From positions 32,001-96,000 of IMG/VR virus record IMGVR_UViG_3300029288_000106: a stretch of 64,000 nt of DNA; one strand, written 5' to 3'. The notes under the pieces are model-generated. The model was not told the DNA's origin, searched no databases, and saw nothing but the letters and a program-made list of their open reading frames with translations. How positions within the stretch are numbered: the stretch's first letter is position 1; every line of letters starts with the position of its first letter. This DNA comes from a virus. Taxonomy: Duplodnaviria; Caudoviricetes. Shown one piece after another: positions 6,979 through 39,729 of this stretch. Both the position numbers and the translations under genes were made by a program.

Positions 6979-6986
6979 TTAAAAAC

Positions 6987-14193: not shown

Positions 14194-14977
14194 AATAATT
14201 CAAAGTCTATTAACTGCCAGATCTGATAATGATATATACATCGCTGAATGTTGTGTCAATGAATGTCGATTAGACGGCTGGGCTATACGAAAGTCTTATT
14301 CTAATCCACTCACAATAGGTTATGAAATCAAAATAAGTAAATCAGATTTTTTGACAGATAAAAAATGGACTGGCTATTTGTCATATTGTAATGAATTGTA
14401 CTTTGTTTGTCCGTCTCATCTTATACAGCCAAATGAAGTGGGAGAACAAGTAGGATTGATGTGGGTAGCATCAACTGGAACAAGAATTTATACAAAGAAA
14501 AAAGCTACCTACAGAATTGTAGAAGATAAGTATATTAATCAAATTTTGAGATCAGTACTTTTTAATAGATGTGTAGTTAGAGAAAATTATTGGGGTAATG
14601 CACAGCCAGACAAATCAACGTTTTGGAAAAGATGGTTGCAGAAAAAAGACGAAGATAAAGAATTAGGCTGGAATGTTAGTGAAAAAGTAAGACAATTAGT
14701 TGAAGAGCGTGTTGATAAAGTGAAAAGGGAAAATAGTAGCTTAAGAAGAAAAATTGAAGAATTTAAACGCCTTGAAGAATTACTAATAAAACTTAATTTT
14801 AATCCTGAATATTTTGATTTGAATGAAGTTCAAAATCGTATTAAAGGAGCAATACCCAAAGATTTACTTTGGACAATTGATCAAGTTATAGATAGACTTG
14901 ATCGAACAAAGAAAAAACTATTACTTTTAGAAAGGACAAAAGCAGATGGACAAAACACAGATGACCCAAGGAATTGA
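14183..14977 (+). CDS. MmcB-like PD-(D/E)XK protein with coiled-coil C-terminus
   Basis: LDGWA..GYEIKISKSDF..KW..YL.YCNELYFVCP. Confidence 0.75.
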   Translation: MNAEIIQSLLTARSDNDIYIAECCVNECRLDGWAIRKSYSNPLTIGYEIKISKSDFLTDKKWTGYLSYCNELYFVCPSHLIQPNEVGEQVGLMWVASTGTRIYTKKKATYRIVEDKYINQILRSVLFNRCVVRENYWGNAQPDKSTFWKRWLQKKDEDKELGWNVSEKVRQLVEERVDKVKRENSSLRRKIEEFKRLEELLIKLNFNPEYFDLNEVQNRIKGAIPKDLLWTIDQVIDRLDRTKKKLLLLERTKADGQNTDDPRN

Positions 14978-15497
14978 GATGTTTCTTAAAGGCGCAGGAA
15001 TTGATTTAACAAATGAACATTTCCAGAAAACTCCAGCTAGAGTTACTAAAGCTTTTGCTGAGACATTTTTATCTGGATACGAAATGAATATTCAATCAAT
15101 CCTCGAAACAACATTTACTGAAAATAAATATGATCAGATGGTAGTAATAAGTAATATACCATTCTGTAGTATGTGTGCACACCATTTGCTTCCTTTCTAT
15201 GGTCATGCGAAGATCGGATATTTACCAGATGGTAAAGTCTGTGGCTTATCAAAATTAGCTAGAGCATTAGAAGTACACTCGCGAAGATTACAAATTCAAG
15301 AAAAGCTTACCCAAGATCTTGCTGAAGATCTAATGAAGTATCTCAAACCTAAAGGCGTTGGAATTATTTTAGAAGCTGTTCATTTGTGCATGACAGAGCG
15401 AGGAGTGATGAAATCAGGAAGTTTAACAAAAACATCTTGTTTACTTGGTGCATTTAGAGACGATGCATCAACACGACAAGAATTCTTGTCTTTCTAA
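14946..15497 (+). CDS. folE: GTP cyclohydrolase I
   Basis: TPARV, SMCAHHLLPF, GLSKLAR, RLQIQE, HLCMTERGV. Confidence 0.96.
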   Translation: MDKTQMTQGIEMFLKGAGIDLTNEHFQKTPARVTKAFAETFLSGYEMNIQSILETTFTENKYDQMVVISNIPFCSMCAHHLLPFYGHAKIGYLPDGKVCGLSKLARALEVHSRRLQIQEKLTQDLAEDLMKYLKPKGVGIILEAVHLCMTERGVMKSGSLTKTSCLLGAFRDDASTRQEFLSF

Positions 15498-20875: not shown

Positions 20876-20890
20876 AATATTTTTAAAAAA

Positions 20891-20925
20891 TTTTCTTGAT
20901 TTTTATAAAACATATATTATAATAT
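20891..20925 (+). promoter_or_regulatory. Sigma70-like early promoter, copy 3
   Basis: TTGATT(20896)-16 nt-TATAAT(20918). Confidence 0.75.
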
Positions 20926-20929
20926 ATTT

Positions 20930-21280
20930 ATGAATAAAAAACAACTATTAAAAAATAGTAAAACAAGCAAAATTAAAAATAAACATTTTACTTCGCCCGG
21001 TAATACTTTTTACGGCATTCAAAATAAAACAACTAAAGTATTATTAAGTTTATCAGTATCAGGAACAGGATCAACTGAAAGTTATGAATGTAGCCTTCAA
21101 GAAGATAGATTTACTAAAACTCCTTGGCTTACTACTTCTAAAGAAATAGCCAAAAAACTTTTAGAGGAAGGAATTGATTGGTATAATTCAAATTTAGAGT
21201 GCCCAGGAAATGCTTGGATGTTTAATGATGGTAAATTTAAAAACTATGAAATTGTAGAAATAATACTACAAATAAAATAA
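20930..21280 (+). CDS. Hypothetical protein
   Basis: 116-aa ORF starting 7 nt after the -10 box. Confidence 0.65.
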   Translation: MNKKQLLKNSKTSKIKNKHFTSPGNTFYGIQNKTTKVLLSLSVSGTGSTESYECSLQEDRFTKTPWLTTSKEIAKKLLEEGIDWYNSNLECPGNAWMFNDGKFKNYEIVEIILQIK

Positions 21281-21354
21281 TTTTTAAAAATCAAATTTTT
21301 TACTTTTGTATTTTATAAAAACGTATATATTAAAAAGAAGAAAGGGCAAAACAG

Positions 21355-22377
21355 ATGATTGATATTACAAAAAAACTCATTACAAAAGAAACAATGCTAG
21401 AACAGGGCCAAAAGCTCCGCACACTCACGGCTGAAGATATTACATTTGGAGAACAAACCAAATTTGCTTATGATGAAAAGCAAGGTGTAGTTCTTCAAGT
21501 GAAATCAAACGAACCTCAAACACTCGAAGCAACAGCAGTTCAACATCTTCTTCAGAATATTGGACTGCCTCAGAAGTTCTTTAACGAAACAACATCAGAT
21601 TTAGCAATACAACTTTTGAACTATTGGTATCAAGACAAACGAAATGGCCTCAAAAGCAGATTGTTAAAAGAAACAGGAAAAGTTACCGGAGTAGCTTTCA
21701 ATCCAAGAGATCAATTTGTATCACTTGATCAAATGATTGAAACAATCGAAGCATCTCTTGGGCAAGCAAATATTATTGGTTATCACAATCCATATTTCGA
21801 TTGGTCTCACAGCAATATCAATGTTGTGCTTAACCAGGTATTTGCAGTAAACGGAAGAGAAGATTTACTTAACATTGGAATCAGATTTGTTCATTCTTTC
21901 AACGAAATTGAACCAACTCGAGCTTTTGCTTATGTCTTTCGTCAATTTTGCTCTAATGGAGCAATAACAGAAGATACATTCGCTTCATTCAGTAAACGAT
22001 CAAAAGGTATGCCATTTAGAAAATGGGTTGATTCAGTTGTTGTTGAATCAACAAAAGCAGCAGGCCTCGAACAACAGCGATTGCAAAAACTCTTGCAGAT
22101 GCCAACAAATCAACATACATCTGATATACTTAATCATGTAATGGAAAGATCATTCTTACCAAAAGATGTACAAGAAGCAATTCGAACAGAAGCAATTGAT
22201 GCTAACGCAGAAACAATGTATGATGTCTACAATATACTTACTCGAGTATCTACACATCATCCAATCTTTTCTGATCATCCAACTGCTCTTCCGACAGTTG
22301 AAAAACTTGCAACAGGCCTTTCATTCCATTCTAGTTTATGTCCAGTATGCAAACACGAAATTGTAACAAAAGATTAA
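21355..22377 (+). CDS. DUF932-like protein
   Basis: FRQFCSNGAI motif; MYDVYNILT. Confidence 0.7.
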   Translation: MIDITKKLITKETMLEQGQKLRTLTAEDITFGEQTKFAYDEKQGVVLQVKSNEPQTLEATAVQHLLQNIGLPQKFFNETTSDLAIQLLNYWYQDKRNGLKSRLLKETGKVTGVAFNPRDQFVSLDQMIETIEASLGQANIIGYHNPYFDWSHSNINVVLNQVFAVNGREDLLNIGIRFVHSFNEIEPTRAFAYVFRQFCSNGAITEDTFASFSKRSKGMPFRKWVDSVVVESTKAAGLEQQRLQKLLQMPTNQHTSDILNHVMERSFLPKDVQEAIRTEAIDANAETMYDVYNILTRVSTHHPIFSDHPTALPTVEKLATGLSFHSSLCPVCKHEIVTKD

Positions 22378-22394
22378 CTAACTAGCTAATCATC

Positions 22395-22426
22395 GCCACG
22401 ATCCAGACTAAAAACTGGATCGAGGC
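22395..22426 (+). terminator. Stem-loop, possible terminator
   Basis: CGATCCAG/CTGGATCG stem after the DUF932 stop; weak U-tract. Confidence 0.45.
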
Positions 22427-22468
22427 CTTGATTATCTTTCAGAAATAACATCAAAGTCTAAAACAAGG

Positions 22469-22999
22469 ATGGTTATGAATAGCAGCAAGGATGTTACTCA
22501 ATATCTGAGTATAATTCAGATAGAAGCGTATAAGTGTTATATGAAATTAAAAAAACCACCTATTTATGATGTAGAAGATTTAGAACAAGAAGGGATAATT
22601 GTATGGTTGTATGCTTGTATGTTTAAACCTGATTACACAGAACTTGAGTTCAGGCCATACTTTAGAATAGCTCTTATAAATAGATTTAATGATATTCTAA
22701 CAAAGTCTTATCGATATATTAATCAAGCTGGAGAAATAGATATGCCTTGTATTGGAGCATTAAAGCCCACTATATCTCCTCTAGCTAAAGCACAACTAAC
22801 TGAAACATTATACACAAATCTATCTCCAGTAGAACTTAATTACATATCTACACTTTTCAACTTGTCAGAAGAAGAAAAGAAAGAACTAACAAACGACCGG
22901 CGACATAGATTTTCATTAATGCAGAAAAAAATGAATTTAACGACCGAACAAGATTTTCAAACTAGAAAAAATATTGAACGGGTTTTAACTAATGCTTAA
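22469..22999 (+). CDS. Sigma70-family-like factor (region 2)
   Basis: DVEDLEQEG..FRPYF..INRFNDIL. Confidence 0.6.
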   Translation: MVMNSSKDVTQYLSIIQIEAYKCYMKLKKPPIYDVEDLEQEGIIVWLYACMFKPDYTELEFRPYFRIALINRFNDILTKSYRYINQAGEIDMPCIGALKPTISPLAKAQLTETLYTNLSPVELNYISTLFNLSEEEKKELTNDRRHRFSLMQKKMNLTTEQDFQTRKNIERVLTNA

Positions 23000-23016
23000 T
23001 TCTATATATACAAAGA

Positions 23017-23064
23017 TATTAACCAGTAGAAGATCATTAAGGAGCACGCGTGCTCTTAAGATCT
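23017..23064 (+). repeat. Dispersed palindromic element, copy 3 (upstream of queC)
   Basis: TATTAACCAGTAGAAGATCATTAAGGAGCACGCGTGCTCTTAAGATCT. Confidence 0.9.
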
Positions 23065-23081
23065 TGATATAGGAGAATAAT

Positions 23082-23843
23082 ATGGGCAGTAGTGTAGTAG
23101 TAGTTTATTCAGGCGGATTAGATAGCACAGTATTACTAAATCATGCTGTAAAAACAATTGATCGAGTGTTAGCAATAAACTTTAATTACGGATCAAAACA
23201 TAATAATAAAGAACGAGATGCAGCTAAAGCTGTTTGTGAAGAACTTTCAGTTCCACTTTTTCTTGTTAATCTTCCAACTGATATAATTTGGATTGATCCG
23301 ACCTATCATTCTGAACGACTTGGGACTTTACTTAAGTCAAATCTAATGGCAAAAGGAAACGAAATACCAGATGGTCATTATGCTGAAGATGTGATGAAAA
23401 AAACAGTTGTCCCATTTAGAAATGGTATTATGCTATCAATAGCAGCTGGATTTGCTGAAAGTCATGATTGTAAATTTTTATGGTTAGCTAGCCATTCGGG
23501 CGATCATCATATATACTGTGATTGTAGACCAGAATTTACAAATGCTATGGCTTCTGCTGTACATTTTGGTACATATACTAATATTGAATTGAGAGCTCCG
23601 TTCAGCAATAAAAATAAAGCAGAAATTGTGAAACAGGGAGTTGAAGAAAATGCTCCAATGCATTTAACTTGGAGTTGTTATAAAGGTGGAAATAGACCGT
23701 GTCTAACTTGTGGCACATGCATTGAAAGAACCGAAGCATTCAAATTAGCTGGAATAAAAGATCCAACTCTATCCGATGCTGAATGGAAAATAGCATTAAC
23801 TCATCTGGAAAAAACAAACAATTTGATGAAAGAACAATCATGA
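23082..23843 (+). CDS. queC: 7-cyano-7-deazaguanine (preQ0) synthase
   Basis: SGGLDS, YGSKH, VPFRN, DCRPEF, SCY..PCLTCGTC. Confidence 0.95.
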   Translation: MGSSVVVVYSGGLDSTVLLNHAVKTIDRVLAINFNYGSKHNNKERDAAKAVCEELSVPLFLVNLPTDIIWIDPTYHSERLGTLLKSNLMAKGNEIPDGHYAEDVMKKTVVPFRNGIMLSIAAGFAESHDCKFLWLASHSGDHHIYCDCRPEFTNAMASAVHFGTYTNIELRAPFSNKNKAEIVKQGVEENAPMHLTWSCYKGGNRPCLTCGTCIERTEAFKLAGIKDPTLSDAEWKIALTHLEKTNNLMKEQS

Positions 23844-24067
23844 AGATAACAAAACAAAAAACAGAAAGACTCATAAAAAAACTCAGTCCTATTGATAATG
23901 TAGAATTTTTTCAGGCCAATCCAAAATACGTCCGGGTAAATGACTTTGCTAAAGCAAATAATATCACTGTACAAACAGTACTAAATAAGGCACGGAATGG
24001 AAGCATTGAAGCAAGGATGTTCATGAACTTAATTGTTGTGAGAAATAAAAAGGAAAATATCACATGA
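23840..24067 (+). CDS. Small putative HTH DNA-binding protein
   Basis: VNDFAKANNITVQTVLNKARNG; ATGA overlap with queC. Confidence 0.6.
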   Translation: MKITKQKTERLIKKLSPIDNVEFFQANPKYVRVNDFAKANNITVQTVLNKARNGSIEARMFMNLIVVRNKKENIT

Positions 24068-24174
24068 TTGCTGTAATTCTCATAAGCCTTGCAGTATTAA
24101 TGATTTACCCCCCAGCTTTTCTTCCCGTTTTACTTATACTCGGGGCGTTGTGTATAGGAGCTAAATGTAGATAA
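24064..24174 (+). CDS. Small hydrophobic membrane peptide (36 aa)
   Basis: AAGGA SD; MIAVILISLAVLMIYPPAFLPVLLILGALCIGAKCR. Confidence 0.55.
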   Translation: MIAVILISLAVLMIYPPAFLPVLLILGALCIGAKCR

Positions 24175-24225
24175 ACTTCACAGTGTGTGAAGTAATAATA
24201 ACTTAACTCTAGAAAGGGACAAAAA

Positions 24226-24636
24226 ATGAAGTTAGCATGGTACCGAATTATTGTATTGATCTTACAATTACTGACTGGTAAGACTGACAGAATATTACCA
24301 AGAACAGAAATCAATTGTAAGCCAGAAGCGCTGTATTTGTTGAAGCAGCTGAAAAAAACTGCAGCAACAACAGCTAACATCGAATTCTGGATGTGGTTGG
24401 TCACGAAAATTATTGAACTTATAAAAACGATGCAGGAAGAAACAGCTACGGAAATACCTACTTTAGTTGGTTTACCAGACGTAACACTTGGTCTTGCTAA
24501 AATAGTGGGAGATCAACCTACACAACTTCCGCCAGCAATGGAAAGTATTGATGGGGCTATTGCTTTCTTACAACCAGCACCAGCTAAAACAGAAGAACCG
24601 GCCAAAACAGAAACAAATCAGCCAGAACAGTCGTAA
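24226..24636 (+). CDS. Hypothetical protein
   Basis: 136-aa ORF, AAGGGA SD. Confidence 0.7.
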   Translation: MKLAWYRIIVLILQLLTGKTDRILPRTEINCKPEALYLLKQLKKTAATTANIEFWMWLVTKIIELIKTMQEETATEIPTLVGLPDVTLGLAKIVGDQPTQLPPAMESIDGAIAFLQPAPAKTEEPAKTETNQPEQS

Positions 24637-24652
24637 TTATATAAAGACCAGT

Positions 24653-24723
24653 GGGGCTGTAGTTTAACTGGCAAAACGCTTTATTACGGTAAAGAATTAT
24701 AGGTTCAAATCCTATCGGCTCCA
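24653..24723 (+). tRNA. Atypical tRNA: Ala-type acceptor stem, 6-nt anticodon loop (UUACGG), no encoded CCA
   Basis: GGGGCTG/CGGCTCC-A; D-stem GTTT/AAAC with GG; anticodon stem CTTTA/TAAAG; T-arm ATAGG-TTCAAAT-CCTAT. Confidence 0.8.
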
Positions 24724-24761
24724 GTAAATATATTAGGTAATTTCAATTGAAAGGATTCACT

Positions 24762-25637
24762 ATGGACCTCAAGTTTGGATGGCTCAAAGAACCAGATGAT
24801 CCTCGTGACTACACAGAGCAAAATATTCAAACTAAAAAACCAGAGTTTGCTAGACTCAAACTTCCGTTTTTTAAACAGGAAAAAGTTATAAATAATGACC
24901 GATACGTTATAAAAGGCGTATATCAAAAACGCAATGACTGCGTTGCCCACACAGGTTATCATCTTGTTGGATTTATCTGTAAGAAGATTTTTGGTAAAGA
25001 TGTTAAAATATCAAGAAGACATCTATATTACTTACTTCGATTTCTGATGCTAAATGATGAAAAACCAGTCAACTCAGAAATTGTATATCCATCTGAAGAT
25101 ACAGGTGGGTGGATTCGAAAAATGATTCAATCTATCTCTCTTGGCATTGTACCTGAAGACTACATTCGATATGTTGCAGACAAATATAATGAAAAACCTG
25201 ATCCATATCTTGTAGCACAATTCGCTGGATCTTACAAAGCTTTGAAAGCAATAAAACTCGATTATCCTGGAATAGATAGAGAAGAACTTATTGTAAGTAT
25301 GAAAAAATGGTGTGAAGCAGGTTGGCCAATTGCTTTTGGAACACTTCTTGGAAAGTCATACTATGAAAGTTTTGAGAATGGTGGTATAATTAAAGCACCT
25401 AATTTCTTAAAAGAAGGAATACCAATAGGTGCTCACGCTATGATGATTCCGGCTGGCTTCGACGAAAATACAAAGAGATTTCGACTTCAAAATTCTCACC
25501 TTGGTTTCGGAGATGAAAATTGTTGTGGCTATATTGATGAAGATGTATTTAGAATGAAACGAAACCAAAAACCAATTGCTCAAGATATCTGGGTTGGAAT
25601 TGACTACCAAGCTCTTATAAAAGAACAATTCAATTAA
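24762..25637 (+). CDS. Papain-family (C1A) cysteine peptidase
   Basis: GW..PDDPRDY; QKRNDCVAH; GAHAM; LQNS. Confidence 0.8.
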   Translation: MDLKFGWLKEPDDPRDYTEQNIQTKKPEFARLKLPFFKQEKVINNDRYVIKGVYQKRNDCVAHTGYHLVGFICKKIFGKDVKISRRHLYYLLRFLMLNDEKPVNSEIVYPSEDTGGWIRKMIQSISLGIVPEDYIRYVADKYNEKPDPYLVAQFAGSYKALKAIKLDYPGIDREELIVSMKKWCEAGWPIAFGTLLGKSYYESFENGGIIKAPNFLKEGIPIGAHAMMIPAGFDENTKRFRLQNSHLGFGDENCCGYIDEDVFRMKRNQKPIAQDIWVGIDYQALIKEQFN

Positions 25638-25676
25638 ACTAACCCAAAAAATAATCAAAAGACAAGAGGAAAACTA

Positions 25677-26513
25677 ATGGATACAGAAATGTGGGATCTA
25701 TTATATATCGCTGATAAAAAAGATAGCCATGAAGCTGACGACTTTATAGATAACTACACAGCTATATTTAACAGAAAGCTATGGAAAGAACGCTATCCAG
25801 ATATTCCATATCCACATTATTCTCATGCTGAAAAAGTATTTCCATACCGAGCTCGTTACGCAGAATGGATTGAAAGGCACTGTGGAATTGTCATTCCAGT
25901 TGGAAATAATATATGCTTTAGTTCAACATTAAGAGACGAAGGAAAAGGAGTAAGATTTGCTGATTTTGACATAATCACTCGAAACAAACATAGATGGGAT
26001 TTATATCTTGAAATCATAACAGAAGAAGAAATGGATATTCGATTTGCTCGGGCTTGTAAAATAGTTGGTCGGCCTTATTTCAAGATTGGATTGGTTCTTG
26101 ATTTTGGTTTGCCTTTCGGTAAATTAGGATGGGCAATTGGAGCTTTACTTAATCAATGGTATTGTTCGCAAGCTTGTTTTTATGTAGATACAGGAAAACG
26201 TGCCAGACAATCACCAATACGAAGAGGAATTTGGATAAGACAACAAGGACGAAAGTTTTTAGGTAATTTAGGTGAAAATGAAGTTAATTATCAGATTATA
26301 AATGATGGAAAAGTTCAAATTCAACTTCAAAAAACAGTATCAAAAATAGTAGCAACTGATTGTGAAGGAAGAAAGTGTACAGTAGTAGAATTTGAACACA
26401 ATCAAGATATAAATCAGGAAATACTAGAGTTTATATTTATGAAAACTCTTATATATACAAAAAATGTAGGAGCAGAAAATATCAAAAGTATTGATATTGA
26501 AAACAAATCATGA
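25677..26513 (+). CDS. Putative permuted NlpC/P60 (YiiX-like) amidase
   Basis: YSHAE upstream of WYCSQ. Confidence 0.5.
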   Translation: MDTEMWDLLYIADKKDSHEADDFIDNYTAIFNRKLWKERYPDIPYPHYSHAEKVFPYRARYAEWIERHCGIVIPVGNNICFSSTLRDEGKGVRFADFDIITRNKHRWDLYLEIITEEEMDIRFARACKIVGRPYFKIGLVLDFGLPFGKLGWAIGALLNQWYCSQACFYVDTGKRARQSPIRRGIWIRQQGRKFLGNLGENEVNYQIINDGKVQIQLQKTVSKIVATDCEGRKCTVVEFEHNQDINQEILEFIFMKTLIYTKNVGAENIKSIDIENKS

Positions 26514-26689
26514 AATGGCTTTGTATAATATTTTGTGTTGCATTTATAGCATTTGGTGGAGTTAAAGTAGAGCATCATGTAATTGTTGAAGTAAATGCTA
26601 AACATGTAGTTGAATCAATCTTAAATTTCTTTAGGTTTCGAAGCAGGAGTAAACCAGATGATAATAACAAGAGAATACCTCAGAGCTAA
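26510..26689 (+). CDS. Small protein with N-terminal hydrophobic segment (59 aa)
   Basis: MKWLCIIFCVAFIAFGG...; ATGA overlap. Confidence 0.5.
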   Translation: MKWLCIIFCVAFIAFGGVKVEHHVIVEVNAKHVVESILNFFRFRSRSKPDDNNKRIPQS

Positions 26690-27026
26690 TCCAACACATA
26701 TATTTGTATTTGGTGATAACATGCTTCATTCAGGATATGCTGGAGCTGCTGCTTTAAGAGATGAACCAAATGTTTTTAAATTTATAACTAAAAAAAGACC
26801 TACACAAGAAGATTCAGCTTTCTATACTCCAGAAGAATACAAAAAAATCTATTTACGAGAAATTGGCTTGTTGATAGTAGATATACAGATGCAGCCAGAT
26901 AATTTATTCTTAATATCAAAATTAGGATCTGGTCTTGCTAATAGATTTGGTATATTTGAAGCAATAATCGAACCACACATCAAAAATGATTTAGCCAGTT
27001 ATTCTAATGTAAAATTCTTATGGTAA
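26658..27026 (+). CDS. Conserved phage hypothetical protein (FVFGDN family)
   Basis: IFVFGDN..GAAALR..ITKK..LGSGLA; AGGAG SD. Confidence 0.7.
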   Translation: MIITREYLRANPTHIFVFGDNMLHSGYAGAAALRDEPNVFKFITKKRPTQEDSAFYTPEEYKKIYLREIGLLIVDIQMQPDNLFLISKLGSGLANRFGIFEAIIEPHIKNDLASYSNVKFLW

Positions 27027-27069
27027 TCCTGCAACGTATGCCCTCACCGGGTATACAACACTTTCGCGT

Positions 27070-27098
27070 AATGGCTGCTATCCGACGGCCATTTTTTT
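27070..27098 (+). terminator. Intrinsic terminator of the + strand block
   Basis: AATGGCTG/CGGCCATT stem then T7. Confidence 0.75.
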
Positions 27099-27105
27099 AT
27101 CAAAT

Positions 27106-27145
27106 AAAAAAGTGGACACCACTAAAACAATCAGCAGTGCCCACT
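27106..27145 (-). terminator. Intrinsic terminator of the - strand block
   Basis: On - strand AGTGGGCAC/GTGTCCACT stem then T-tract. Confidence 0.7.
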
Positions 27146-27171
27146 AAAGAGAAAAAAGAGTTTCTTGAAAC

Positions 27172-28053
27172 TTACTTTTTTCCTAATATCTTATTATAAG
27201 CATTAATATAAAATTGAACAAGATTTTTTGGGTGCCAATTTTGTAAAATCCATTCGCGGCTTTTTTGTTGATATTCTCTGAGCTTGTCTGTATTAACAAG
27301 TAGATTGTCCAGCACTGTATCAAGAACATTCAAATCAGCATAAACCCAAGCAGGATGAAAAAAGTTATTAATAACTGCTAAACCAAAACAAGACCCTTCT
27401 AATGATGTCCGATGAAATGTATTATTTATCACATCATCTACTAGAATGTCACTATTTCTCTTCTCTAGTAAATTATCTTCATAAGAAAAATTTGAAAAAA
27501 CTTTTACTATAGCTTTATCTGTAAATTTAGATAAAATTTCACATACCTCAGGTTTTCCTTTTGTTCCAATCTGATTTACTGGAAGAGAATTGGTTGGAGC
27601 AAATGCAATTATTGGCTTTTCATTTTTCTTTAACAAAGGAGTATATTCTTCAGGATTGATAAGATTTGGTAAGGTCATGAGTTTTGGATACTGTCTCATT
27701 TGTAGTGGTTGAGATATACAATAAACATATGGTGTAATTCGTGCATACCAATCAAGAGGCATTCTCTGTGGTACAGAATGAAGCTGAATAATTATTTTCT
27801 TTTTCCTTATCCATTCTTCTGGAAGTAAATTTATTTCATTATGAAAATGAATGATATCTGCTTCAGCAACTAAATTTTGTATTTGCTTATCTTCAGTATT
27901 GAAAATAATATCAGATGGAAATTTCCGGCCATCTCTATACTGAGTTCTATGAGCAATCCATCGAACTTTAAGATCAGTATAATTATTCAAACATTTGCAG
28001 ATCTCATAAGGAGCAGCGGCCAAAGCGGTTTTTGATACATGTATTATATTCAT
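27172..28053 (-). CDS. GT-B fold glycosyltransferase
   Basis: ADIIHFH, FAPTN, DILVDD..SLEG. Confidence 0.7.
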   Translation of the reverse strand: MNIIHVSKTALAAAPYEICKCLNNYTDLKVRWIAHRTQYRDGRKFPSDIIFNTEDKQIQNLVAEADIIHFHNEINLLPEEWIRKKKIIIQLHSVPQRMPLDWYARITPYVYCISQPLQMRQYPKLMTLPNLINPEEYTPLLKKNEKPIIAFAPTNSLPVNQIGTKGKPEVCEILSKFTDKAIVKVFSNFSYEDNLLEKRNSDILVDDVINNTFHRTSLEGSCFGLAVINNFFHPAWVYADLNVLDTVLDNLLVNTDKLREYQQKSREWILQNWHPKNLVQFYINAYNKILGKK

Positions 28054-29783
28054 TTCTTTATAATATCCACCACGAGAGATAAAGGACGTTTTGGATTTTG
28101 AACTCTCTCATCAAAATCTGATGTTCTAGTTACCATTCCTTTTGAATAATCAATAGCTTTAATAACTGGAGTTCCATCCATCTTATAATATTGTAGGTAT
28201 TCAATTCTTGAATCAGAAAAAAGACTTTTTTGAATCAGATAATCAACACAATCAAACCTAGGAAACCATTTATGGCCTCGAGTTCCATCTGCATTTACAC
28301 CTCCTACTGGATCAAATACAACATCCCCATTCTCATTTTTTACTGATCGATTTTGATAAATATCACAACCATAATCAGGTAGAGATAATCTAAATAATCC
28401 TCCAGGCCGAAGAACTCTATATATTTCATCCATAACAGCTATTAATTTTGGATTAAAACAAATATGTTCAAAAACATCTTCGGATTGTATTGAATCTACT
28501 GAATTATCTGGTAGAGGAATTGGATCAGTAATATCATGATGAATACTTGTGCATGAACTCTCTTCTAATGTAAGTCCGATTAAATTATCATATTCTGGAA
28601 GAAGAGGAACAGTTCCAATATAAAGATGGATATCTTTTTTCTGTTTTATAGCAGACCAAGATAAAACAGGAAGTTTAGACCATGAATTTAAAGCCTCACA
28701 AATACAATTAATTTCATCGTCTGACATTTCAGGATAAAGAGGAAGGGTAAGGATTTGATTGCAAATTTTTTCAGTATTTACTAAATTATCACTTCCTTTT
28801 ATTCTATTCAAATAGCCAGATTGAAGATGAACAGGAATAGGATAATGAATAGCAACCCCAATATTGCAAGATTTTAGAAAGTCTATTAATTTACTCCTAG
28901 AATTACAGATATCTCTTACAACGCAGAGATGCCAAACGGGCTCAGAAAGAATATCCACTTTCTGAGGAAGTAATTTTTTAGGATCAAGAAATTTAGAATA
29001 TTTATAAACTATATTTCTTCTTTTTCCATTATCTTCACTTAAATAAGTAAGTTTTGCATTAAGTACAGCAGCCTGAATTTCATCCATTCGAGAATTCCAA
29101 CCAGGAAATAAACTATTTTGTTTTTCTTGCCATCCATATTGTCTTAAGCTTATTAGTTGTTTAAAAACTTCTTGATCTTTAGTAACCACAGCTCCAGCAT
29201 CACCTAAAGCACCTAAATTCTTAGTAGGATAAAAACTAAAAGCCCCGGCATCCCCAAATGATCCAACTCGTCTACCATTGTATGAAGCACCATGAGCTTG
29301 ACAACAATCTTCCACAACTTTTAAATTCAATCTTGAAGCAATAGCACAAACAGCTTCAATTTTACAGGGTTGGCCATACAAATGAACAGGAATAATTGCT
29401 TTTGTCTTAGGACTAACTGCATTTTCTATTTTATTTGGATCAATAGTAAGTGTATGTTCTTCTATATCTACAAAAACAGGAATTGCTCCAATCATTTCAA
29501 TTGCAGCAACTGTAGCTACAGAAGTATGAGATACAGTTATAACTTCATCGCCGGAACAAACTCCCACAGCTTTTAAAGCAAGGGCTAAAGCTTCTGTTCC
29601 ATTACTTACACCAACACAATAATTAGTGTTACAGTAATTTGCAAATCTTTCCTCAAATATTTTTACTTCTTCTCCCAGAATATACCAGCCACTATTCAAG
29701 ACTTTATCAATTCGAGAATTAATAATATCCCTGTACTTATCAAAACTTGCTTTTGGACAAACAACTGGAATAACTTTATCCAT
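28050..29783 (-). CDS. DegT/DnrJ/EryC1/StrS (FdtB-like) sugar aminotransferase fused to a methyltransferase-11-like domain
   Basis: SNGTEAL, VHLYG, EDCCQAHG, SFYPTKNLG; C-terminal EDVFEH..EIYRVLRPGG. Confidence 0.9.
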   Translation of the reverse strand: MDKVIPVVCPKASFDKYRDIINSRIDKVLNSGWYILGEEVKIFEERFANYCNTNYCVGVSNGTEALALALKAVGVCSGDEVITVSHTSVATVAAIEMIGAIPVFVDIEEHTLTIDPNKIENAVSPKTKAIIPVHLYGQPCKIEAVCAIASRLNLKVVEDCCQAHGASYNGRRVGSFGDAGAFSFYPTKNLGALGDAGAVVTKDQEVFKQLISLRQYGWQEKQNSLFPGWNSRMDEIQAAVLNAKLTYLSEDNGKRRNIVYKYSKFLDPKKLLPQKVDILSEPVWHLCVVRDICNSRSKLIDFLKSCNIGVAIHYPIPVHLQSGYLNRIKGSDNLVNTEKICNQILTLPLYPEMSDDEINCICEALNSWSKLPVLSWSAIKQKKDIHLYIGTVPLLPEYDNLIGLTLEESSCTSIHHDITDPIPLPDNSVDSIQSEDVFEHICFNPKLIAVMDEIYRVLRPGGLFRLSLPDYGCDIYQNRSVKNENGDVVFDPVGGVNADGTRGHKWFPRFDCVDYLIQKSLFSDSRIEYLQYYKMDGTPVIKAIDYSKGMVTRTSDFDERVQNPKRPLSLVVDIIKK

Positions 29784-30168
29784 TTTTATTTCCTATCATT
29801 TCTTCAAATGTCAAGTAGTCGTTAGAATCATATGAATGTGAAGCAACAACTAACAAAATTGAGTCTTCTTCAGCAAAAATTTCCTTTGTCCATACAAAAG
29901 TATCAACAAATAACGATTGTCCTCTTTCCAAGCATACCACATTATTTGATTGATTAGTTTGTTTGATTTCAATCTCAATCTTTCCACTTATACAAATATA
30001 AAACTGTTTACATAATTTATGAGCATGACCTCCTCGAGTATGTCCTTGAGGCACATTTTTTATTATGAAAATTCTCTTTGGAATAAAAGGGATATTCGAG
30101 AATTCAATTGGAATAAGATCTCCTCCTCGAATACTATCTTGCAAGATCGGAAAAGTATGTATATTCAT
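29776..30168 (-). CDS. FdtA/QdtA-family NDP-4-keto-6-deoxysugar 3,4-ketoisomerase
   Basis: RGGDL, RGGHAH, LLVVASHSYD. Confidence 0.9.
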   Translation of the reverse strand: MNIHTFPILQDSIRGGDLIPIEFSNIPFIPKRIFIIKNVPQGHTRGGHAHKLCKQFYICISGKIEIEIKQTNQSNNVVCLERGQSLFVDTFVWTKEIFAEEDSILLVVASHSYDSNDYLTFEEMIGNKNG

Positions 30169-30183
30169 ATTATCATTCCTTAT

Positions 30184-31527
30184 CTAAACACGTTTTTGAA
30201 ACATTTCTCTCCATGTTCCTTCTAGTAGTAATACCATCTCTGTTACTTCTTGATCAGACATTGCTGAAAAATTAACTTTATATTCTCTTCCTGAATGAAA
30301 GAAAATATCATAAAAGTCTCTGTGACTCTTTATCCTATGCTTTGCAAGTATGTAATCATAAAGAGGAGAACCAGGATATGGACAAGTATAAGTACAAGCA
30401 AATTGAATTCGAGGATCTATTTTAAGAATTGTTTTCAATAGTTCAAGTGAAGCTTTTGCATCAGCTTTTGTTTCAGTCAACTGACCTACCATAATGCTTG
30501 TAGTAACAAAAATTCCTATTCGAGCTAATCTTTTAATAACACTAACAACCATTTCTGTAGTATAATTTTTTCCTATCGTTTGTAATATTCGATCTGATCC
30601 AGATTCAATACCAATACCTATAACTCTACAACCCGAATTTTTCATATCAATAAGTGTTGAATCATCCATCCTTGACAATATATCAATTCGAGAAGATACT
30701 GAATAACCTACTTTTCTATCTAAATTTTCTATTCCTTTAACAATTTGCTTTGCTCGATTTGGAGAACACAAAACTGTATCATCAGAAAAGTACAAAACAT
30801 TGCCATCAAATCTCTTCAAAGCATCTGATGCTTCTTCCATCATTATATTAACTGGCCTATAACGAGGTTTACTGTGATGGTAACAAAAATTACAATTATA
30901 TGGGCATCCTCTTCCTCCATGAACATTTATAACTCTATCTGCTTCATCCCAATGCCATTGAGTATTTCTATAGTATTTTCCAATTGGTAACCATTTTTCA
31001 GCTGGAAACAAATCATACTGAACAGGCGGAAGTTTAGTAAGATCTTCAATATAATCTCCCACTCCTGTATTTGTAAATTTATTTCCTTCTTTTATTACAA
31101 GTCCTTTAATATCAAATATACTGTTATTTCTGCGTAAAGCTTTTACAATTCGATCAAGAGTAATTTCTCCTTCGCCAATCACTCCTATATCAGCACCTGT
31201 AATTTCAATAGCAAATTCAGGAATAGGTGAAACCATCTGGCCACCAACAATAATTGGAAAATCTCTTCCTGCCTTATTCAACATTTCAATCATTTCTCTA
31301 TTTTGTTTCAACTCAGGATATAAACTTCCAAATCCAACAACAAGGGGTTTTAATAACATAATCTGATTAACTATATTTTGTAAATTACCTTCTTTAAAGA
31401 ATACTCTTACATCTTCTCCTTGTGCTATTAGATAACTAGCTAAATAAGGATAAGATAAAGGAAAAGTATAAGTAATATCACAAGATACTAAAACAACTGG
31501 TCCATTTTTGTTTTTGCTTACAATCAT
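30184..31527 (-). CDS. B12-binding radical SAM enzyme (class B methyltransferase-like)
   Basis: IVGG..GEGE; GRGCPYNCNFC; GIESGS; PYPGS. Confidence 0.9.
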   Translation of the reverse strand: MIVSKNKNGPVVLVSCDITYTFPLSYPYLASYLIAQGEDVRVFFKEGNLQNIVNQIMLLKPLVVGFGSLYPELKQNREMIEMLNKAGRDFPIIVGGQMVSPIPEFAIEITGADIGVIGEGEITLDRIVKALRRNNSIFDIKGLVIKEGNKFTNTGVGDYIEDLTKLPPVQYDLFPAEKWLPIGKYYRNTQWHWDEADRVINVHGGRGCPYNCNFCYHHSKPRYRPVNIMMEEASDALKRFDGNVLYFSDDTVLCSPNRAKQIVKGIENLDRKVGYSVSSRIDILSRMDDSTLIDMKNSGCRVIGIGIESGSDRILQTIGKNYTTEMVVSVIKRLARIGIFVTTSIMVGQLTETKADAKASLELLKTILKIDPRIQFACTYTCPYPGSPLYDYILAKHRIKSHRDFYDIFFHSGREYKVNFSAMSDQEVTEMVLLLEGTWREMFQKRV

Positions 31528-31530
31528 ATT

Positions 31531-32235
31531 TTAAACTTTCTTAAACAGATACGAGGCGTGGTATTCATCATTTTTTACATCTACTACATATTCTACTTTA
31601 TCTACTAATTCAAGTTTATTCAATTTAAACATCTCAAGCAGCTCGTTTTCATTATAATGAATTTCAAAAACCGGAACTTCATAAGCAAGCTTCTTTAAAT
31701 ATTGAGTAGGTTTAGATTTACAAGCTATTGATCTATGTAATATTACATATTGTTTTGATACTCTAGTTGCTTCAGAAATATGCTGAAGTGCATTAGAAAC
31801 ATGAATAAGTATACTTCCTAGAATAACAAAATCAAATTCATTATCGGAAAATGGAAGATTTGCTCCGTCAGCAACAATAAAATTAGCAGTTGAATAATAT
31901 TCTTTAGCTTTTTGAATCATTGCTTCTGAATAATCTACACCGGTATATTTAAGCTTTGTTTGAAAAAGTATAGATAATACCTCATAGTAATATCCAGTAG
32001 AACACCCGGTTTCAAGAATTGAAGAATCTTGAGTAAAATTTCCTTTTCTCAAGAAATCTTGCACAATTGTAAATAATATATTTGGTTGATTTTTGTGTGC
32101 TTCTTGAATTGCTTGATCTGCAAGTACCCGCTGTCGCAATGGTATGTTCTGATTTTTCCATCCATCTAACAAATCAAGAGGTATATTAGTTGGTTTAATT
32201 GAAGTATGTCCTGATGAAACTTTTTTCATATCCAT
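31531..32235 (-). CDS. Class I SAM-dependent methyltransferase
   Basis: LETGCSTG, GVDYS, LPFSDNEFD; AAAGGA SD before ATG 32235. Confidence 0.85.
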   Translation of the reverse strand: MDMKKVSSGHTSIKPTNIPLDLLDGWKNQNIPLRQRVLADQAIQEAHKNQPNILFTIVQDFLRKGNFTQDSSILETGCSTGYYYEVLSILFQTKLKYTGVDYSEAMIQKAKEYYSTANFIVADGANLPFSDNEFDFVILGSILIHVSNALQHISEATRVSKQYVILHRSIACKSKPTQYLKKLAYEVPVFEIHYNENELLEMFKLNKLELVDKVEYVVDVKNDEYHASYLFKKV

Positions 32236-32236
32236 G

Positions 32237-33082
32237 TTATTTCCTTTGACCAATTATATATGTTAAAAGATTTCCGTATTGTGCTACTGGTATTGATTTC
32301 CAAGTATATTGACTATTCTTTGTAATTAAATTGGAAAAATATGTTTTATTATCATAACCATACCATTCATCTTGATAACCAAGAAGAACATATTTAGTAG
32401 ATTGAAAAACTTTCTTAAAAATCTCATCTCGAAGATCAAATGGACTTTCTGATATTGACCATAATGCTATGAATAAACTATTTTCTGCAATCAATATTTC
32501 AGATGTTTGATTTCTATCCCACAAAAAATTTATATCTTTATCTTTTTGATAATGATTAAAAGAACTTGTTTTATCTAATGTTGAACTTAAGTAATATTCT
32601 TGAAGAGCTAAAACTTCTGGAAGATCAAATATTGTATAATTTCCACAAAATCCAAATTTAAAAATCAATTTGCAGAGCATTCCAAAACCACCACCAAACT
32701 CAAAAATAGTTTGAAGAGTATTAAAATCAAGGCCTGTTTCAACTATAAGTGTAGCAAGATGACAAGCATGATTTACACTATTTCCACATGATTCTGACAA
32801 TGGTGGATATGAAAGAGGATTACCAACTGATGATCTCGTGAGAATTGATTGTATTTTAGGCCAAAATGAAAGGGTTTTTAGAAATTGTACTGCATTTTCA
32901 GATGGCTCATATGTCATTCGTCCTACAATTACTTGCCAATTCAAAAAATTATCTATATTATCAGTTAGAATATGCTTTATAAGTTTGAGTCTGTTTTCAT
33001 TCCATGTATTTGAAATTAGAAGGTTAGAATAAACATCTTGAACTCTTCTTTTCAATTTTTCTTTTAATTCATTTTGATTCAT
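32237..33082 (-). CDS. Putative sugar O-methyltransferase
   Basis: FEFGGGFG, IFDLPE..LQEYYL, ALWSISE. Confidence 0.8.
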   Translation of the reverse strand: MNQNELKEKLKRRVQDVYSNLLISNTWNENRLKLIKHILTDNIDNFLNWQVIVGRMTYEPSENAVQFLKTLSFWPKIQSILTRSSVGNPLSYPPLSESCGNSVNHACHLATLIVETGLDFNTLQTIFEFGGGFGMLCKLIFKFGFCGNYTIFDLPEVLALQEYYLSSTLDKTSSFNHYQKDKDINFLWDRNQTSEILIAENSLFIALWSISESPFDLRDEIFKKVFQSTKYVLLGYQDEWYGYDNKTYFSNLITKNSQYTWKSIPVAQYGNLLTYIIGQRK

Positions 33083-33903
33083 TTTAGTCTAATCTTTCCT
33101 TGTAAACAACAATTTGTAAAACTATGTTTGCATTCATCGGTATTAAAAACAGCTTGTGTTTCATCAGTAAATAAATGTTTGAATTCTAAAACAACACTCA
33201 TCATAGCTTTTCCGTTTAGTCCTTTTCTTTGATTAGTTAAGTACATTCCACCCTCAGAAAATCTATGCCAATAAAAAGTATTAGGCAGTATAGCTATTCT
33301 TGATCCAGTTGCAAGCTGTCTAAACCCAAATGACCAACTACCCATTACATTTCCTTCTGGATATCTACCAGCTTTTTCATAACTTTCTCTAGTAAATAAA
33401 TAATTACCTGACGCAGGAGGAGTTTTTCCTCCTTCTTTTCCTATCATACAAGCAAGATCAACAATATTATTTGGAGCTTTGAAAAACCACGAATTAAGAT
33501 GACTATACTGACTGTTTATATTTTTGAAAAACCTCAACTCTTCAAAACAAGCAGCTTCACATTTTGTATTATCAAGATGTTCAATTAACTTATTAACCGA
33601 ATCCGGCACAAGTACGTTATCTGTATCAAGGCAAAAGAAAAGATCACCTTGAGCATGAGATACAGAAAGATTATTTGCAATACATTCTCCTCCTGATTCA
33701 TCACGATAATAAGCATGAAAATTATCAACTGCATCATCCCATTTTCTCAATATTTGCTTTGTCTTTTCATCAGTTGATGCATCATCTGTACATATAACTT
33801 CAAAAGGAATAGATAAATGCTGTTTATAAATTGAAACTAAAGCCTCTTCTATTATATCTGCATAGTTGTAACAAGGAAGAATAAAAGATAAAAAATGCTT
33901 CAT
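33079..33903 (-). CDS. GT2 glycosyltransferase
   Basis: ILPCYN, DDASTD, LDTD. Confidence 0.88.
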   Translation of the reverse strand: MKHFLSFILPCYNYADIIEEALVSIYKQHLSIPFEVICTDDASTDEKTKQILRKWDDAVDNFHAYYRDESGGECIANNLSVSHAQGDLFFCLDTDNVLVPDSVNKLIEHLDNTKCEAACFEELRFFKNINSQYSHLNSWFFKAPNNIVDLACMIGKEGGKTPPASGNYLFTRESYEKAGRYPEGNVMGSWSFGFRQLATGSRIAILPNTFYWHRFSEGGMYLTNQRKGLNGKAMMSVVLEFKHLFTDETQAVFNTDECKHSFTNCCLQGKIRLK

Positions 33904-33905
33904 AA

Positions 33906-34769
33906 TTACCTCAGTAATTCTAATTCTTTCAAAATATACTTGCACCAATTTCCATCAGCTAAATTTGTATCATAAAAACTTTTTGCATTAATTCCCATCT
34001 GTAATAAAAATTCATTATCAAATTCATCTATTATTCTCTCAATCTCGTTAATAGATTTTGTATAAAAGCTTACTTGAGACCAATCTAAAAATTTCTTGAA
34101 TGGTCGATGATCAATATCACCAATTAAAAAAGGTATACACCCAAGCTGCATCGCTTCATAAAATCTGTATGAAGCTCCACCATAACCTCTTGGACACAAT
34201 GCAATATAAGATTGAAGCATCATTGAAACAAAAGCTTCTGTTCCGCCACCTCCTTGAATATTAATATCCCGTCTATGTGCTAGTTTTTGTAGCATTTCTT
34301 TTCGTGATGGATGAGTAGTTAAGCTTCCTACAAAATTTGCTTTATATACCTTATTTTCATTATATCTATAAGGATGTTTAGCACAAAGAAGAGGAATATC
34401 TAAACCATCTAGAGCTGTTCTGGAACCAAGAAATACAATAGTATTACCTAAATTTATTTTTGGCTGTTCTGCATACTCATATATAGTAAAAGTTTTTGAA
34501 CTATCTATTATACTTCTATTTGCTTCTGCTTGTAATTTATCTAAATCTACTGTTCCAAATTTATGATTTACCAGCCAATGAGTCCAGAGAATGGGCAGAT
34601 AATGCCAATCTGCCTCTGCAGGATCTGGTGTGATTAAATTATGATGGTTTTGTAAATAGGAAAGAAACAGCTCTTCTGCATCTTTAAACCCTTTATTATG
34701 AGCTGGATATGTAACCGAAATAGTTGATGGCTGAAATTCAGATTTTACTGGTAGTATATAAATTTTCAT
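33906..34769 (-). CDS. Exostosin-like (GT47) glycosyltransferase
   Basis: ALCPRGYG..RFYEAMQLGCIP. Confidence 0.85.
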   Translation of the reverse strand: MKIYILPVKSEFQPSTISVTYPAHNKGFKDAEELFLSYLQNHHNLITPDPAEADWHYLPILWTHWLVNHKFGTVDLDKLQAEANRSIIDSSKTFTIYEYAEQPKINLGNTIVFLGSRTALDGLDIPLLCAKHPYRYNENKVYKANFVGSLTTHPSRKEMLQKLAHRRDINIQGGGGTEAFVSMMLQSYIALCPRGYGGASYRFYEAMQLGCIPFLIGDIDHRPFKKFLDWSQVSFYTKSINEIERIIDEFDNEFLLQMGINAKSFYDTNLADGNWCKYILKELELLR

Positions 34770-35467
34770 TTAATTTTCCCTTCAAATACATCTAGAGAAA
34801 GAGCCGCCACAAAAATTGAATATTCAAAATTCTCGTCAGATGCTTGTAGATTATTTTTTAGTATAAAATGAGTTTTCTCAACCTTCAAAATATGATAATC
34901 TTTACTTCGAAGAATTGAATGAATTTCAGCTAGTGTGGTATGTGAATCAATATACGTTCCACCATATTCAAATTCAATAAAATCAATTGCTTTGTTGTTA
35001 AGAAGACTATAGGCTCCTTTTATTATATCAAATTCACTTCCTTCAGCATCAATTTTCAAGTAATTGATTTTTGGAATTTTTCGTATTTCACAGTATCTTT
35101 CTACAGTAATTGCTGGAACATCAATAGGGGTATTTGGTAAACCAATATTGTATTTTGTTTCTGCATCAAATCGTCTGTATGTTGTATTTAGAGTAAGATT
35201 TTGTGGATAAATATAAAAAGGTCTTATTCCAATCAAATCACTCACCAAAACTTGAGAAATAAAAATTTCTGGGTAAGAAATAAATTTATTTTTCAGAACA
35301 GAAAAACAAATAGGGTTAGGCTCGAATAAGTGGATTTGACCAGCATTTTTATCTACTACTAATTCAGTCCAATCACCTTGGTAAGCTCCAATATCAAAAA
35401 CAATATCTCCCGATCTAATACAAGTATCTATTAATTTTTTTTCTTTTGCTACTTCAAATAAACTCAT
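34766..35467 (-). CDS. FkbM-family methyltransferase
   Basis: FDIGAYQG, FEP, KIDAEGSE. Confidence 0.88.
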   Translation of the reverse strand: MSLFEVAKEKKLIDTCIRSGDIVFDIGAYQGDWTELVVDKNAGQIHLFEPNPICFSVLKNKFISYPEIFISQVLVSDLIGIRPFYIYPQNLTLNTTYRRFDAETKYNIGLPNTPIDVPAITVERYCEIRKIPKINYLKIDAEGSEFDIIKGAYSLLNNKAIDFIEFEYGGTYIDSHTTLAEIHSILRSKDYHILKVEKTHFILKNNLQASDENFEYSIFVAALSLDVFEGKIK

Positions 35468-35468
35468 T

Positions 35469-36293: not shown

Positions 36294-36916
36294 ATTTTTT
36301 CTTTCACATAAAAAGCATCACCCCAAGAAGAACATACTCTCTTTTCTTCTCTACAAACAAAGTTAAACTGAGCTAAAAATTTATCTAATTGCGTTTTGAG
36401 CACACATCCTTCATACATTTCTTCATAATTAACTTCTGTATTAATAGCATCGATATGATTTTCTAACAGATTAATAGCTCCTTGAAATGCAAGTAACTCT
36501 GCTCCTTGAATATCAATGTTAATAAAATTAAAATTGCTTGGAGCTCTGATTTTGAAAAATGTATCTAATGTAATACAAGGAACAGTAATAATTTTTGTTT
36601 CAACAATATTAGGATATACCACTTTATGATACTTTAATGGAAGAATTGAACTACTCTGATCCATCGATGTTACGTGAAATTTACATTCTCCTACGTAATT
36701 TGATATTGCACATTGAACTGCTTTTATATTTCCTGTGCTTTGAATTTTCTCAACTAGTCTCTGATATACATCAGGATTAGCTTCGAACAAAACAATTTCT
36801 GGTATATTCATAGCTAAATAAATTGAGCACTCTTGTCCTTCATGAGCACCAATATGAATAACACCTTTTTTTAATATTTTATACTTTTCATATAATTTTG
36901 GTAAATCAAAATACAT
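36290..36916 (-). CDS. FkbM-family methyltransferase
   Basis: HIGAH, FEANP, IDIQGAEL, WGDAFY. Confidence 0.88.
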   Translation of the reverse strand: MYFDLPKLYEKYKILKKGVIHIGAHEGQECSIYLAMNIPEIVLFEANPDVYQRLVEKIQSTGNIKAVQCAISNYVGECKFHVTSMDQSSSILPLKYHKVVYPNIVETKIITVPCITLDTFFKIRAPSNFNFINIDIQGAELLAFQGAINLLENHIDAINTEVNYEEMYEGCVLKTQLDKFLAQFNFVCREEKRVCSSWGDAFYVKEKI

Positions 36917-36918
36917 AG

Positions 36919-39707: not shown

Positions 39708-39729
39708 TCTCTTTTTAGTATATACTTTG

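Follow-up and report, generated by a model that had tools for sequence, protein, structure and literature searches.

Can a phage tRNA with only six nucleotides in its anticodon loop still be of use to the phage, and does that use lie outside translation? This question was raised by a tRNA-Ala-type gene at 24653-24723, on the plus strand of the window, by which we mean the whole stretch of 64,000 nucleotides of viral DNA that was analysed. The gene encodes a 71-nt cloverleaf with a 6-nt anticodon loop and without CCA. The window belongs to a 105-kb IMG/VR myovirus record with 32% G+C and T4-like baseplate genes, on which this is the sole tRNA; the phage is uncultured and comes from landfill and groundwater. 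The reading that we favour, with a probability of roughly 40%, is that the tRNA can be charged with alanine and does not decode, and that alanine donation outside translation is its leading use.

Structure and identity of the tRNA

The tRNA is embedded in a plus-strand operon and has no promoter or terminator of its own. Its surroundings are as follows.

23082-23843, plus strand: QueC (7-cyano-7-deazaguanine synthase; Pfam PF06508, E 4e-53), ending 810 nt upstream of the tRNA
24226-24636, plus strand: upstream ORF of 136 aa, no family match, stopping 16 nt 5' of the tRNA
24653-24723, plus strand: the tRNA gene
24679-24694, plus strand: anticodon arm of the tRNA, with a 5-bp stem (CUUUA/UAAAG) and the loop UUACGG at 24684-24689
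24762-25637, plus strand: downstream ORF of 291 aa, no family match, beginning 38 nt 3' of the tRNA

Rfam RF00005 matched 24653-24723 over the full model (1-71) with 54.6 bits (E 5.5e-09; gathering score 29), and ARAGORN reported a tRNA-??? at 24652-24724 with a 2-nt anticodon, 'ac'. The acceptor stem consists of G1-C72, G2-C71, G3.U70, G4-C69, C5-G68, U6.G67 and G7-C66, and the discriminator A73 is followed by GUA, so that CCA is not encoded. The D arm is normal, with a full 4-bp stem and the loop AACUGGCA, in which G18 and G19 are present and position 20 is C. The anticodon stem of 5 bp surrounds the 6-nt loop, and the variable loop is 4 nt long. The T stem (A49-U65, U50-A64, A51-U63, G52-C62 and G53-C61) carries a standard T loop, UUCAAAU. 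The conserved tertiary nucleotides U8, A14, G18, G19, A21, U54, U55, C56 and A58 are all there. The gene has the cloverleaf and the tertiary nucleotides of a canonical elongator tRNA in RF00005, and in both alleles described below it has 6 nt in place of the 7-nt loop with a 3-nt anticodon. A preliminary description of this DNA had reported an intact cloverleaf with these bases, 0.8 kb downstream of queC; sequence, ARAGORN and Rfam agree with every detail of it, and the distance from the end of queC at 23843 is 810 nt.

Whether the short loop is real was examined in related assemblies, which were fetched through the downstream 291-aa protein, a single 90% cluster of five sequences in a large protein collection. 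The same tRNA locus was found in nine further assemblies (JGI, ENA and Logan), and the tRNA was retained in every assembly, spanning nine studies and two habitats, with ARAGORN again reporting a 2-nt anticodon. The alignment showed two alleles: allele A, identical to the window, in five of the nine, and allele B in four. They differ at 6 of the 71 positions (C20U, U32C, G36A, A41G, A44U and A59G), allele B having a U29.G41 pair in the anticodon stem. The loops, UUACGG in allele A and CUACAG in allele B, are both 6 nt long. The sequencing-run evidence consisted of run contigs: Logan contigs from independent landfill and groundwater runs covered the tRNA with zero indels, one of them at a k-mer depth of 36. 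Assembly or homopolymer error is excluded, since these independent contigs cover the tRNA without an inserted or deleted base. The 6-nt loop is genuine; a 7-nt loop, the outcome that would have unsettled the preliminary description, was seen neither in the run contigs nor in the nine assemblies.

We then considered how the loop folds. The predictions favoured pairing of loop positions 1 and 6, as U.G in allele A and C-G in allele B, the U32C change turning the one pair into the other across the loop. This extra closure gives a 6-bp stem with a tetraloop, UACG in allele A or UACA in allele B, favoured by 1.3 and 2.9 kcal/mol, respectively. The loop thus probably closes to a tetraloop, as far as folding energies tell, and this would make decoding even less feasible. 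For allele B, the prediction also put a rod-like fold 3.3 kcal/mol ahead of the cloverleaf. Two further ideas about the loop were set aside, namely that it was designed as a stable UNCG tetraloop (UACA in allele B is not UNCG) and that the tRNA is a substrate of the TGT-like phage DpdA (the loop has no UGU motif).

The amino-acid identity of the tRNA was assessed from its acceptor end and D arm. The bacterial alanine determinants are A73, G2-C71, G3.U70, G4-C69 and G20, none of which sits in the anticodon (PMC9976931 Table 1). Four of the five are present in both alleles, and the minor determinant G20 is replaced by C in allele A and by U in allele B. The preliminary description had named G3.U70 and A73 as alanine marks; both were confirmed, and G2-C71 and G4-C69 can be added to them. 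Among 86 tRNAs compared, the closest was a normal phage tRNA-Ala(UGC), L002:6482-6556, which is identical at 55 of 71 positions. The first 25 nt, comprising the 5' strand of the acceptor stem and the D arm, are the same in both, as are G3.U70, A73 and the type of T loop. The L002 tRNA differs in having a 7-nt loop (CUUGCAA), G-C at 49-65 and 51-63 and an encoded CCA, where the tRNA of the window has the 6-nt loop, A-U at both T-stem positions and no CCA. By these comparisons, the tRNA body is of the alanine type.

A normal phage tRNA-Arg(ACG) in L012 has the loop UUACGGA, and the loop of allele A is the same minus the last base (position 38). The identity of tRNA-Arg(ACG) rests on A20, C35, G/U36 and a 7-nt loop. 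Arginine identity does not hold for the present tRNA because A20 is missing (C20 or U20) and allele B alters the would-be G36 to A, in keeping with the earlier denial of arginine identity from the absence of A20. These results suggest that the tRNA is most likely chargeable with alanine by the host AlaRS.

Divergence of the alleles and alternative explanations

Over 14 kb, the identity of the two phage genomes is 98.4-98.9%, but the tRNA differs by 8.5%. This figure equals that for synonymous sites in the genes on either side (0.076 and 0.089) and is seven times as high as in the other intergenic DNA (8/674, 1.2%). By rate alone, the tRNA looks unconstrained. The placement of the changes was then examined. 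Not one of the six breaks any of the 21 base pairs or touches a tertiary nucleotide or G3.U70/A73; the one change in a stem turns U-A into U.G. In a simulation with random placement of five transitions and one transversion, all of these elements were spared with p 0.016, and the pairs only with p 0.09. The acceptor, D and T stems are free of changes, which chance alone would give in about 3% of cases (calculated post hoc), and four of the six lie in the anticodon arm or the variable loop. This selection test covers two close alleles, with no compensatory double change and no deep conservation. Such a distribution is what one would see if the acceptor body is constrained and the anticodon arm is free or diversifying, although two close alleles do not make this decisive. 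Random decay in relatives, which the preliminary description had set against its own reading, has the neutral rate (8.5%) on its side and the absence of any broken pair or indel against it. The sequence evidence for selection on the tRNA is thus mixed.

Some observations were made on the surrounding DNA in the same comparison. Between window positions 20881-35053 and the assembly L020, which carries allele B, synonymous sites (2-9%) have diverged more than the intergenic DNA. The gene at 24762-25637 is the fastest-evolving nearby (pS 0.089, pN 0.019), and together with the tRNA it forms a local divergence hot spot between the phage alleles. L020 holds an extra 190-aa gene (L020:10897-11469) between the homologues of 24762-25637 and 25677-26513, which is absent from the window and from L021 and L027, both of allele B.

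Relatives of the tRNA were searched for in several collections. DNA pattern scans with the tRNA body, or with an alanine acceptor plus a YUACRG loop, found no homologue outside this phage species in IMG/VR, JGI metagenomes and GTDB genomes. Their only matches were a normal tRNA-Ala, a normal tRNA-Arg, a singleton in Epilithonimonas and, from soil, unrelated tRNAs whose loops have 8 nt. With blastn, the tRNA had partial T-arm matches only among GenBank phages. No match at E <= 0.001 was found in 301 Bacteroidota genomes, and these therefore give no clue to the host. IMG/VR scans with the downstream 291-aa protein and with the DNA polymerase found no relatives, and QueC relatives (39-49% identity) had no tRNA in their flanks or whole records. 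As the QueC search in the large protein collection found nothing between 100% and 57% identity, the phage lineage is isolated.

Three kinds of off-size tRNA turned up beside these searches. The singleton, in Epilithonimonas arachidiradicis (L050:989-1059, minus strand, the same as L061:14050-14120, minus strand), is a 71-nt tRNA-like gene of 47.8 bits with an alanine acceptor and the 6-nt loop GUUACA. It lies in a region that IMG/VR calls a provirus and is absent from 100 other genomes of the family, in which only normal tRNA-Ala matched, at about 79% identity; its appearance is that of decay or of an att-site copy. Five soil or metagenome contigs (L029:631-707, L030:380-455, L031:181-256 on the minus strand, L032:4918-4993 and L033:1897-1972) hold a conserved tRNA-??? 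with an 8-nt loop, a 4-nt anticodon in ARAGORN ('ttac') and an alanine-type acceptor, GGGGGCU...AGCCUCCA, with G3.U70 and A73. By sequence, they may be a quadruplet-type or non-decoding family. A tRNA-??? with the 6-nt loop GUUUCG lies in a tRNA cluster of L012 (5748-5819, minus strand), a 116-kb IMG/VR phage contig, and off-size loops thus recur in phage tRNA sets.

The alternative with the best chance of being right, although we favour it less, is that the gene, once a phage tRNA-Ala-type gene with one more nucleotide in its loop, has been drifting since that nucleotide was lost. Such a relic would still be transcribed in the operon and would serve at most as an RNase P/RNase Z site separating the flanking mRNAs. 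Divergence at the local synonymous rate (pS 0.076-0.089) is consistent with it, as are the lack of a promoter and terminator between ORFs only 16 nt and 38 nt away and the confinement of the gene to this phage species in IMG/VR, JGI metagenomes and GTDB genomes. The Epilithonimonas gene offers a comparable case, an alanine-acceptor singleton with a 6-nt loop in a predicted provirus that looks like decay. A role in processing would need the acceptor and T arms only, which is where changes are absent. However, drift sits poorly with six changes that spare pairs, tertiary nucleotides and identity elements (p 0.016 if random), with a loop length unchanged in both alleles and with retention of the gene in every assembly across the nine studies and two habitats.

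It is quite improbable, in our view, that the tRNA acts as a decoy or inhibitor against a host defence that targets tRNAs, such as an anticodon nuclease, its arm mimicking the target, escaping cleavage and evolving in an arms race. Precedents exist in phage tRNAs that escape or oppose anticodon nucleases and retron effectors (PMC10264068, PMC11555353). The clustering of four of the six differences in the anticodon arm or variable loop, a rate of change seven times that of other intergenic DNA and the match of the allele A loop to the first six bases of the tRNA-Arg(ACG) loop would all suit an arms race. However, CUACAG in allele B destroys the Arg-like C35-G36 signature and so leaves no constant target to be mimicked. 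The tRNAs of the known cases moreover have 7-nt loops and function in decoding, none of the genes next to the tRNA of the window was identified as serving defence or counter-defence, and a decoy would not need an alanine acceptor identity.

The triplet UAC is all that is shared by the readings that ARAGORN gives as possible, which are Val|Arg in allele A and Val|Cys in allele B, and A73 is compatible with valine identity. An unconventional decoder, which would read GUA or GUN via UAC, or a doublet with a frame shift, and insert alanine or valine, is nevertheless very unlikely. In its favour, both alleles keep UAC with its 5' pyrimidine and 3' purine, and a natural tRNA has been visualised in doublet-type decoding on the ribosome (PMC12202706). 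Against it, the literature yielded no account of a natural bacterial or phage tRNA that decodes with a 6-nt loop, and either U33 or position 32 would be absent or inconstant. Alanine would be inserted in error for valine or arginine on account of G3.U70, the predicted fold closes preferentially to a tetraloop, and the window ORFs read through in table 11.

A candidate transferase in a preQ1 DNA-modification operon

We examined the protein at 6067-6978, which the preliminary description had proposed as the transferase. It lies in a minus-strand operon with the order QueE, transferase, DpdM-like protein, DpdA, sliding clamp and DNA polymerase, in which the genes of 4257-7851 abut or overlap. These genes and two others of the same pathway are listed below.

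7162-7851, minus strand: QueE-like radical SAM enzyme (Pfam; phrog_2076, E 2.5e-32)
6067-6978, minus strand: soluble protein of the DUF2156/MprF-C/FemX fold (dupli-GNAT), candidate aminoacyl-tRNA-dependent transferase, assigned by structure
5339-6067, minus strand: YkgJ/CxxCxxCC protein (Pfam PF03692), DpdM-like, candidate preQ1 methyltransferase, whose start abuts the transferase stop
4257-5342, minus strand: DpdA-type DNA guanine transglycosylase (phrog_887 'queuine tRNA-ribosyltransferase', E 4.8e-43; no Pfam TGT match)
2625-3659, minus strand: sliding clamp, following DpdA
88-2628, minus strand: DNA polymerase, following the sliding clamp
14946-15497, plus strand: FolE (GTP cyclohydrolase I)
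G000:C1:23995-24222, minus strand: QueF, outside the window in the same genome

The 6067-6978 protein itself had no match in Pfam or PHROGs. In the ESM Atlas it adjoins clusters of LPG_synthase_C and Acetyltransf_6/FemAB, and 15 homologues with 35-50% identity were found. Weak matches to the LPG_synthase_C and Acetyltransf_6/FemAB Pfam families occurred in 5 of the 16 aligned family sequences, and the family profile had no match among PDB sequences. AF2 from the single sequence reached a pLDDT of 37, and the family alignment was used instead, with a pLDDT of 87 and a pTM of 0.85. The best Foldseek matches of this model were all aminoacyl-tRNA-dependent transferases (E 1e-10 to 1e-7). They comprised A-PGS (4v34/4v35), MprF, L-PGS (4v36), DUF2156 proteins (5vrv and 2hqy), Weissella FemX and the streptothricin-type peptide synthases Sbb17/Sba18. 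In VIA-align, aminoacyl-tRNA-dependent enzymes (Z 18.2-12.2) ranked ahead of tandem GNATs that use acetyl-CoA (Z <= 12.2). The proposal of a transferase thus gained the predicted fold of aminoacyl-tRNA-dependent enzymes.

The surroundings of the homologues were also examined. In a complete 111-kb phage (L034), the transferase homologue lies between QueF and QueC. Among the six IMG/VR records with a homologue, QueF is present in five and QueC in four, mostly adjacent. It has been reported that the free amine of preQ1 is methylated or formylated in other phages and that DpdM is a YkgJ homologue (PMC10516641). As modelled, the 6067-6978 protein is a credible tRNA-type acyltransferase acting on preQ1, and the operon at 4257-7851 may serve to make a DNA base not yet described, an aminoacylated preQ1. 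We found in the literature no published description of a tRNA-type transferase family in phage preQ1 DNA-modification operons.

Does the tRNA serve this transferase? In favour of the link, the tRNA is the sole tRNA of the phage, its identity is independent of the anticodon, and it lies in the same genome as the transferase and near queC. MprF/Fem-fold transferases generally read the acceptor end of the tRNA. Co-occurrence of the tRNA with the transferase in relatives, which the preliminary description had put forward as a check, did not hold: other phages with the transferase have 13 ordinary tRNAs including Ala-UGC, or six tRNAs, or tRNA-Met only, or none, the last case including a 90%-complete record. 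The enzyme family therefore needs no dedicated tRNA. Nothing identifies alanine as the donor amino acid of the transferase. The specific link, with this tRNA as the alanine donor to the transferase of the preQ1 operon, is tentative, and we consider it unlikely.

The preliminary description had also argued that the T stem weakens binding to EF-Tu and so keeps the tRNA out of translation. The published T-stem contributions are -0.5 kcal/mol for A49-U65, 0.0 for U50-A64 and +1.1 for A51-U63 (PMC3239215, Table 2). A51-U63 does weaken binding as had been claimed, but A49-U65 strengthens it, and the net effect is mild only. Our additive estimate for the tRNA was -9.5 kcal/mol, against class means of -10.0 to -10.3 for tRNA-Ala (sigma about 0.5), a shift below the outlier cut-off of 1.3 kcal/mol (PMC3239215). 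The EF-Tu argument for exclusion from translation is weak on this estimate.

Two side observations concern the phages and genes considered here. A phage with the transferase homologue holds a 'tRNA-Ala(CGC)' (L035:16514-16586, also L036:9099-9171) with a G3-A70 mismatch, G2.U71, G4.U69 and C73, which lacks the canonical alanine mark despite its alanine anticodon. In the window, a glycan cluster on the minus strand (27172-41718), upstream of the tail genes, encodes a DegT aminotransferase-methyltransferase fusion, a B12 radical SAM enzyme, several methyltransferases and glycosyltransferases GT2 and GT47, and its homologue in L020 also includes FdtA. An amino sugar from this cluster was named in the preliminary description as an alternative acceptor of alanine.

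Comparison with known systems and biological meaning

From the locus as a whole, we infer the charging of the tRNA, its exclusion from translation, its link to the transferase and the amino acid used, in the following scheme. The gene itself is real and transcribable, derives from a tRNA-Ala and keeps the whole L-shaped body and the AlaRS marks. The transcript would most likely be matured by RNase P, RNase Z and CCA addition and then charged with alanine by the host. With six nucleotides in its loop, it would take no normal part in decoding and would remain a 'non-proteogenic' Ala-tRNA. The leading candidate use is that of a private alanine donor for the soluble MprF/Fem-type transferase of the phage, which would acylate the free amine of preQ1, either as the base or in DNA. 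That this ends in alanine on preQ1 in DNA, giving an alanyl-7-aminomethyl-7-deazaguanine base, is a doubtful outcome.

The closest known system in function is the staphylococcal non-proteogenic tRNA-Gly. Three of these, NP1-NP3, are donors for FmhB/FemA/FemB, and no species besides S. aureus and S. epidermidis is yet known to have non-proteogenic tRNAs (PMC7826273). In both systems, an extra tRNA keeps its synthetase identity, is poor in translation and occurs in a genome with a Fem-fold transferase, and the weakest-binding pair A51-U63 is present in the phage tRNA too. However, the phage tRNA would be excluded by its 6-nt loop, its T stem being only mildly weak (-9.5 kcal/mol). It is also phage-encoded, would carry alanine and, as proposed, would have a DNA base as acceptor in place of peptidoglycan. 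The mode of exclusion, amino acid, host and target all differ from the staphylococcal case, and the function of the phage tRNA is putative.

A precedent for the pathway exists in Mom of phage Mu, which carries out a Gly-tRNA-dependent modification of adenine in dsDNA (PMC13219725) and is the only demonstrated phage enzyme moving an amino acid from a charged tRNA to DNA. Mom has a single GNAT domain and works with host tRNA-Gly on the N6 of adenine, whereas the 6067-6978 protein is a double GNAT of the DUF2156/MprF type in a preQ1 operon, for which a phage tRNA would be the donor. The tRNA-like domain (TLD) of tmRNA, or a CDS-less tmRNA, likewise has alanine identity (G3.U70, A73) without a usable anticodon. 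In the tmRNA TLD, which works with SmpB, the D stem is missing and the anticodon arm is either missing or replaced by a long connector. The phage tRNA has both, with 4 bp in the D stem and 5 bp in the anticodon stem, and ARAGORN calls it a tRNA, not a tmRNA. The phage tRNAs that escape nucleases (PMC10264068, PMC11555353) resemble it in being phage-encoded with the anticodon loop as the variable part. Unlike the tRNA of the window, whose identity is unrelated to any reading of its loop, they are working decoders with 7-nt loops and cognate identity.

Even if the gene is a relic only, it shows that annotation pipelines still overlook structurally intact tRNA genes with off-size anticodon loops. 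If the tRNA is charged and stays outside translation, dedicated non-proteogenic tRNAs would for the first time be known beyond the staphylococci, and for the first time from a phage. If alanine donation to the transferase is true as well, the tRNA would be the first clue to the amino acid of an undescribed DNA hypermodification, pointing to alanine and to a concrete mass, dPreQ1 + 71 Da.
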